A program made the position numbers and the translations under genes. A stretch of DNA of 64,000 nucleotides. Source: Escherichia coli (GTDB lineage Bacteria > Pseudomonadota > Gammaproteobacteria > Enterobacterales > Enterobacteriaceae). Numbering within the stretch: position 1 is the stretch's first letter; each line of letters opens with the position of its first letter. Location of the stretch: assembly GCF_046105845.1 (NCBI RefSeq), contig NZ_CP151004.1, one strand, 5' to 3'. Shown in pieces: positions 63,351 to 63,569 of the stretch. Below the pieces are notes generated by a model that did not search any database, was not told where the DNA came from, and saw only the letters and a list, made by a program, of their open reading frames with translations.

Positions 63351-63569
63351 GCAGCTTTTGAAATGGCGAGACAGAATTTTACTGACTCGCCGCAGCCAAC
63401 TCTTCTTCTGACACCCCGGTAAAACGCATGATGTCCGCAAGAGGGACTCCGGATTACAGCATTCTTTTGGCGATATCCGGGGCTTCCAGGCGTCGATCCA
63501 ATAAATAACCAATCAGGTAACTAATAAGATATTCTCTTTCTGCATCTGTCATTAAAACCATCCTTTACG

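Follow-up and report, generated by a model that had tools for sequence, protein, structure and literature searches.

What fills the 219 bp between bioH and rpnA in this Escherichia coli chromosome, and why does part of it resemble the end of rpnA? The window, the whole 64,000-nucleotide stretch of DNA that was analysed, ends inside rpnA. A sequence-only reading had described positions 63404-63480, in the spacer, as a degenerate second copy of the rpnA 3' end in the same orientation and at roughly two-thirds identity, left by a decayed duplication or a recombination scar. RpnL nucleases are toxins that are blocked by RpnS, a small protein translated from an internal in-frame start of the same gene (Zhong et al., PNAS 2023, PMC10400941). 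In RpnA this start is M244 and gives the 49-aa RpnAS, a three-helix dimer, and four-amino-acid repeats in the long first helix of RpnS set specificity (PMC10400941). A second copy, termed rpnSs, is located downstream of rpnE, as ypaA, and of rpnC in some strains; neither the main text nor the preprint supplementary text of Zhong et al., figures apart, names an rpnA-linked rpnSs (PMC10400941).

We read the element in the spacer, with a probability of about 0.82, as a separately encoded duplicate of RpnS, the antitoxin module of the RpnA toxin-antitoxin/antiphage nuclease, here inactivated by a nonsense codon. Following rpnESs/ypaA and rpnCSs, we name it rpnASs. Because of the TAA at codon 33, it is filed as a pseudogene of the rpnSs kind and not as a working member. 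The features of the locus are:

62580-63350, plus strand: bioH, the convergent neighbour, whose stop lies 28 bp from the rpnASs stop
Near the window end, minus strand: gntX
63351-63569: bioH-rpnA spacer, 219 bp
63379-63552, minus strand: rpnASs pseudogene, 57 codons plus the terminal TAA (63379-63381), as a single-frame translation
63379-63485, minus strand: part of rpnASs orthologous to the real 3' end of K-12-type rpnA (91% nucleotide identity over 63351-63485)
63454-63456, minus strand: in-frame nonsense TAA, codon 33 of rpnASs
63486-63549, minus strand: rpnASs codons 2-22, the initial two-thirds of predicted helix 1, which contain the hydrophobic four-residue units YLIS-YLIG-YLLD
63550-63552, minus strand: rpnASs ATG, 17 bp past the rpnA stop
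63561-63565, minus strand: rpnASs Shine-Dalgarno sequence AAGGA, 8 nt upstream of the ATG, which copies the Shine-Dalgarno sequence of the rpnAS internal start
63570-64000, minus strand: 3' part of rpnA (297-aa allele, WP_000039100-like), a gene that exceeds the window end
63570-63572, minus strand: rpnA stop codon
63570-63734, minus strand: in-gene RpnAS unit of the window rpnA, with its internal ATG at 63732-63734; the partner of the similarity

The window rpnA has a Pfam Transposase_31 match and scores 675 bits against the NCBIfam RpnA equivalog. E. coli VCSW5 has the same gene order, a 100% identical spacer and an rpnA that encodes a 297-aa protein.

The resemblance between the spacer and the rpnA 3' end is real. 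Local alignment of 63391-63490 against 63570-63700 gave one ungapped 59-nt block, 63418-63476 versus 63612-63670, with 47/59 identities (80%). Its score of 58 compares with 14.4 +/- 2.2 and a maximum of 27 in dinucleotide-preserving shuffles (n=2000). When the spacer was searched by BLASTN against the whole 64-kb window, the core block was recovered at E = 1e-9 and there was no other significant copy of the spacer. The two units, each taken from Shine-Dalgarno sequence to stop, are identical at 116 of 198 positions (59%) in a global alignment, so the two-thirds identity first reported fits the wider unit and the core is higher. Chance, or a shared intergenic REP/BIME-like repeat, is a negligible explanation for this match. 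The core is short, and nothing else speaks for it; against it stand the shuffled scores and the in-frame coding homology to a crystallised protein described below, and the match cannot be REP-like since the window holds no further copy. A REP/BIME repeat as an identity for the element was rejected on the same ground, the sequence occurring at one place per E. coli genome (median 1, highest 2). We also rejected a fragment of an Rpn/YhgA nuclease gene (PF04754, Transposase_31): only the C-terminal tail is present, without the PD-(D/E)XK N-terminal domain, and a local Pfam scan of the copy gave no PF04754 match.

The copy is more than a tail. The minus strand of 63379-63552 is one reading frame that reads MTDAEREYLISYLIGYLLDRRLEAPDIAKRML, a stop, SGVPLADIMRFTGVSEEELAAASQ and the terminal stop. 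The 63404-63480 of the sequence-only reading falls within it. The Shine-Dalgarno and start regions of the two units are collinear and similar (AAGGAtgGTTTTAATGAC versus AAGGAgaGTTTAATGAC), with a score reached in 5 of 5000 shuffles, and the Shine-Dalgarno sequence of rpnASs and its start codon derive from the parent's internal start site (AAGGAtgGTTTTAATGACaGAtGCaGAAAGA versus AAGGAgaGTTTAATGACtATtGCgGAAAGA). A second in-frame ATG (MVLM...) at 63559-63561, 9 nt upstream of the likely start, overlaps the Shine-Dalgarno sequence; in other genomes, the ATG picked by gene callers is the downstream one, for a product of 57 aa. We found no promoter-like or terminator-like site in 63200-64000. Because no terminator-like site separates the genes, an intact rpnASs may be co-transcribed with rpnA/rpnAS, and it would be translated from its own Shine-Dalgarno sequence. 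Of the earlier interpretation, a paralogous second copy of the tail carrying one nonsense codon thus stands. The fragmentary scar does not, as the element is a whole small-gene unit (Shine-Dalgarno sequence, ATG and 57 codons) with intact 57-aa orthologues at the same locus.

These orthologues emerged when the read-through sequence was searched against 5.8 billion proteins; the search returned 57-aa proteins of 84-96% identity (P0001-P0010), all with a precomputed Pfam assignment to PF27070, HTH_Rpn_C. Intact copies sit between rpnA and bioH in two E. ruysiae-like genomes (L008, L009), three E. coli-like metagenome contigs (L012, L013, L023) and a further contig (L024); the bioH of L012 is 99.5% identical to that of the window. 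At codon 33 the intact copies have CAA (Q), GAA (E) or TAT (Y), where the window has TAA. The copy with TAT (Tyr), at 1501-1674 of L023 (metagenome contig ERZ28626391), otherwise has 2 differences from the window; the TAT could be a sequencing variant, or else an apparent reversion that has opened the 57-codon frame again.

An AF2 model of the intact form has a pLDDT of 92 and helices at residues 3-33, 38-45 and 49-56, and its best PDB match is the RpnA-S crystal structure 7TH0 (probability 1.00, TM 0.79). The read-through product itself matches 7TH0 (residues 15-49) at E = 2.6e-12 and the NCBIfam RpnA equivalog at positions 258-292; the sequence-level support for an RpnS-like protein covers residues 26-57 only. 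The local Pfam scan gave no significant hit even for K-12 RpnAS, the local copy of the database seeming to be without PF27070, so membership in HTH_Rpn_C rests on the precomputed annotations and the 7TH0 match. The intact form encodes a predicted three-helix protein of 57 aa, which may have antitoxin-like activity. At E <= 0.001, an exhaustive phmmer run over 1.84 billion representatives yielded 13 hits. Those related to the YLIx half were Escherichia copies of this gene only (intact, truncated or frameshifted), and the other hits were other Rpn tails or weak matches to unrelated proteins. A scan of genome contigs found only E. albertii, E. whittamii and one unrelated MAG; it missed E. coli and is therefore no reliable census.

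No homologue of the first two-thirds of helix 1 (EYLISYLIGYLLDRRLE) was detected beyond Escherichia, nor does this part match an Rpn model, so its homology to RpnS helix 1 rests only on collinearity and the MT.AER start. The segment would have diverged beyond recognition after its duplication. Its composition in the window is hydrophobic, with the units YLIS, YLIG and YLLD standing where the window RpnAS has a variable, mostly charged segment; the repeats described by Zhong et al. are charged as well (PMC10400941). A 12-nt period (TACCTGATTAGT) was detected in E. albertii only, and Tandem Repeats Finder reported no array in 63350-63760: the E. coli YLIx units are too diverged at the DNA level for tandem-repeat detection. 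The number of units varies among the E. albertii proteins P0012-P0014, and the E. coli and E. ruysiae-like copies are all 57 aa. The in-gene helix 1 varies too. Among tandem-type rpnA alleles (L007 and L013 versus window 63650-63700) there is a 12-nt indel (TNAL), and the resulting 293 versus 297 aa of RpnA is the four-amino-acid length variation described for RpnS.

The same spacer was compared across other E. coli genomes. A match of any kind occurs in 5373 of 5426 complete genomes, and the full tandem layout in 853 (16%). A 33-nt probe centred on codon 33 found the TAA version in 826 of the 5426 genomes, in the tandem layout, and the CAA version in 0 of 5426. The type strain ATCC 11775 is among the TAA carriers, and the codon was TAA in 5/5 tandem-type complete genomes that were read directly. 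An intact frame was found neither in the window nor in the 826 E. coli genomes. Most genomes have no PGAP annotation over the stretch; a few carry the call 'transposase; internal stop; incomplete', as in ESC818 ('internal stop; incomplete'), and the 'transposase, incomplete' label reflects tail homology only. Since the AF2 helix 1 spans residues 3-33, the TAA falls at its end; it stops translation there, and therefore no HTH domain can be made. The window copy is most likely non-functional as a protein: a CAA-to-TAA change at codon 33 would have cost the truncated form its function. The 24 codons past the TAA contain no further stop or frameshift though the TAA is old and widespread. The missing extra lesions are unremarkable at ~5% divergence, yet they add no support for decay.

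Variation within the two tails differs sharply. Across ten loci, the in-gene tail has 0 nonsynonymous and 8 synonymous variant codons, and the rpnASs copy at the same ten loci has 22 nonsynonymous and 9 synonymous ones (Fisher p = 4e-4; 3e-3 without codon 33 and the EQSK patch). Pairwise omega is ~0.8-1.1 for the copy and ~0.1 for bioH, although the counts are small. These values fit a decaying duplicate and suggest little or no purifying selection on the spare copy, even where it is intact; with counts this small they could equally reflect fast diversifying evolution of the copy. Even intact copies give a dN/dS near 1 when compared with each other, so the intact gene may at no time have had a function.

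How did the second unit arise? Scored by local alignment with BLOSUM62 against the tails of K-12 RpnA-E, as the sequence-only reading had suggested doing with other rpn paralogues, the helix 2-3 tail of the copy does best with rpnA's own: 76, versus 30-50 with the tails of RpnB, C, D, E and YpaA, these being pairwise scores and not a phylogeny. RpnCSs and RpnESs likewise score best with their own parents. The best score with rpnA's own tail fits local duplication, and a local tandem duplication of the RpnS unit seems the best reading. The gene-within-a-gene unit at the rpnA 3' end, with its internal Shine-Dalgarno sequence, ATG and three-helix HTH_Rpn_C domain, would have been duplicated in tandem so that the duplicate begins directly past the rpnA stop, as in rpnE-ypaA. 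A simple tandem duplication with the present-day flanks was rejected: by eye, 63486-63569 is unlike the sequence after the copy's stop (63351-63378 and the bioH 3' end).

Comparison with K-12 turns the first description of the copy around. For K-12 and most E. coli the match to the spacer is confined to its first 135 nt, which correspond there to the real rpnA 3' end at 91% identity; the spacer copy is thus the orthologue of the K-12 tail and not a degenerate copy of the true 3' end. K-12 RpnA (292 aa) and window-type RpnA (297 aa) are near-identical up to RLRQEG and then diverge sharply, and the K-12 tail (EQSKALHIAKIMLESGVPLADIMRFTGLSEEELAAASQ) is that of the downstream copy, not that of the window rpnA. 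The 84-bp piece at 63486-63569 has no counterpart in K-12 rpnA. In an alignment, K-12 corresponds to the tandem allele of L012 from which a single clean block of 206 bp has been deleted. The copy in L012 reads ...YLLG and then EQSKALHIAKIMLESG..., and at the K-12 junction GGCAGGA(A/G)GGG is joined to GGGGGAACAA, with 149/152 identities beyond the junction. Given this relation, K-12 rpnA/RpnAS (PDB 7TH0) would be a fusion, most simply rpnA(1-254)::rpnASs(20-57). By the deletion analysis, K-12 RpnAS would be a hybrid, with 11 initial residues from rpnA and the remainder from an L012-type rpnASs. We infer that the tandem came first and that K-12 is derived, which is the parsimonious direction.

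The rpnA tail of E. coli O145 (L006) is a chimera as well, with its junction in helix 3, between CTGCGATTTACC and ATGCGCTTTACC, and to judge from the sequence this allele is a second, independent fusion. Directly after this chimeric tail, at 1784-2415 of L006 (E. coli O145 RM8843-C1), a PemK/MazF toxin and an AbrB/MazE antitoxin lie between bioH and rpnA. The site corresponds to window spacer 63351-63569, and the pair therefore represents a second toxin-antitoxin module at the same hotspot. E. albertii joins rpnA codons ~42-69, in frame, to the YLIx units and tail belonging to the downstream copy (L010 3001-3237, L014 2920-3156); its alleles have 1, 2 or 3 copies of the 9-residue YLISYLLDR. 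E. whittamii has a K-12-type tail. From the E. albertii, E. whittamii and E. coli alleles it follows that both states exist across the genus. Further alleles are truncated or interrupted. In the ST131 strain 4224 (L004) and strain 1002W03 (L005), 2526-2900 holds an rpnA that lacks the N-terminal nuclease part; the last 124 rpnA codons, including the K-12-type RpnAS unit, remain, so the antitoxin part survives without the toxin. E. whittamii Sa2BVA5 (L015, 944-3120) carries an insertion after rpnA codon ~215 that encodes a 376-aa ORF, presumably a putative IS605-family TnpB-like protein, and a free-standing 49-aa RpnAS ORF stays downstream of it.

In our proposed explanation the rpnA tail recombines with the downstream copy. 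Deletions between the two would have given chimeric rpnA C-termini at least twice, by a 206-bp deletion with its junction in helix 1 (K-12 type) and a ~195-bp deletion with its junction in helix 3 (O145 type). Each such deletion would change two things at once, the C-terminal domain of the toxin and its nested antitoxin. A part for RpnA itself in promoting the deletions is speculative.

Three other readings of the copy bear on this history. It might be a standing donor cassette, with recurrent recombination re-tailoring the toxin/antitoxin interface under phage pressure, possibly stimulated by RpnA. If so, the K-12, O145 and E. albertii alleles would be three selected outcomes, and the nonsense codon would silence a cassette that is still usable as a donor of helices 2-3; we regard this as rather unlikely. 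The reverse history is improbable, in our estimate: a K-12-like rpnA would be ancestral, and a foreign rpn allele with ~100 bp of 3' flank would have pushed the old tail downstream. Such a displacement would explain why copy and K-12 tail are orthologues with 91% identity, why the divergence after RLRQEG is abrupt and why the 84-bp piece lacks a K-12 counterpart, and rpn genes do move horizontally (PMC10400941). However, no donor emerged. Searches with the variant tail and the 84-bp piece gave no phage hits, the three 'plasmid' hits were 4.8-4.9-Mb records that look like mislabelled E. coli chromosomes, with no true plasmid donor among them, and in 897 E. coli genomes the cassette occurred at the rpnA-bioH locus only. 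Moreover, the supposed flank has an in-frame ATG, an rpnAS-like Shine-Dalgarno sequence and a reading frame that is intact in relatives, which a random junction would hardly provide; the K-12 tail is already explained by a single clean deletion of 206 bp from an existing tandem allele; and the YLIx-repeat sequence is found in E. albertii too.

The third reading holds that the truncated frame is itself functional: either the TAA is read through, or the 32-aa single-helix peptide MTDAEREYLISYLIGYLLDRRLEAPDIAKRML engages the helix-1 dimer interface of RpnAL/RpnAS, by pairing or by competition. No stop codon is more efficient in E. coli than TAA, a point against this reading. The stop is near-fixed in tandem-type E. 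coli (826/853) and truncates exactly at the predicted end of helix 1, and gene callers give the 32-aa product in some assemblies (P0035-37); helix 1 is also the dimerisation and specificity element of RpnS (PMC10400941). Yet the helix-1 residues vary freely (e.g. S11I, Y16C, G19D, L25P, I27T), and pairing is not expected with a helix so unlike that of RpnAS, given that RpnS action needs matching helix-1 repeats (PMC10400941). We consider a functional peptide very improbable and retain the tandem duplicate of the RpnS unit, inactivated by its nonsense codon, as the preferred account.

Set beside the named cases, rpnASs is of the same type as rpnESs/ypaA and rpnCSs. All are second RpnS copies right past the stop of the parent rpn gene, on the same strand, with a start made of the copied internal Shine-Dalgarno sequence and ATG-ACx (MT.AER), and each is closest to its own parent's tail. 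The rpnE-ypaA junction of MG1655 (L017 17780-17840), TAA followed by AAGGAGAGATTAATGACT, and window 63550-63572, TAAcgtAAAGGATGGTTTTAATGACA, follow the same design, and this shared layout may point to a common mode of formation for such duplications. The differences are that rpnASs belongs to rpnA, where the named rpnSs cases belong to rpnE and rpnC; that its divergence from the parent is much greater (tail score 76/150 versus 95/152 for RpnES-YpaA); that its helix 1 is replaced by hydrophobic YLIx units; and that nearly all E. coli carrying it have the nonsense codon. K-12 RpnAS (PDB 7TH0) shares with it orthologous DNA, C-terminal 31-35 residues that are ~90% identical and, by the model, the same three-helix fold; it is translated from inside rpnA, whereas rpnASs is a separate ORF past rpnA with a different helix 1. 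Stand-alone DUF4351 (PF14261)/HTH_Rpn_C (PF27070) proteins beside rpn genes of other bacteria are likewise small, helical and encoded apart from the Rpn nuclease, but the rpnASs lineage, unlike them, is restricted to Escherichia.

A looser likeness is to silent-cassette systems such as Neisseria pilS/pilE and the hsdS shufflons, in which a non-expressed or defective partial copy also adjoins an expressed gene and recombination also gives chimeric C-termini, of which at least two are seen among rpnA alleles. The rpnA events are deletions that consume the spare copy, however, whereas silent cassettes act by reversible or non-reciprocal gene conversion, and the rpnA/rpnASs locus has no sign of the dedicated recombinase or programmed process of those systems. 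Rpn proteins are a recently recognised toxin-antitoxin/antiphage family, with the antitoxin encoded inside the toxin gene and a hypervariable helix as the seat of specificity. Within it, rpnASs reveals no new kind of system, the rpnSs type having already been named (PMC10400941), and the stretch has usually gone unannotated or passed as an 'incomplete transposase'. What it adds is that rpnA becomes the third E. coli rpn gene with a downstream spare copy, after rpnE and rpnC; that the reference K-12 RpnA/RpnAS pair, including 7TH0, would be a fusion product whose unfused state survives in ~16% of E. coli; and that deletion between tandem copies offers a concrete sequence-level route to new toxin/antitoxin C-termini.
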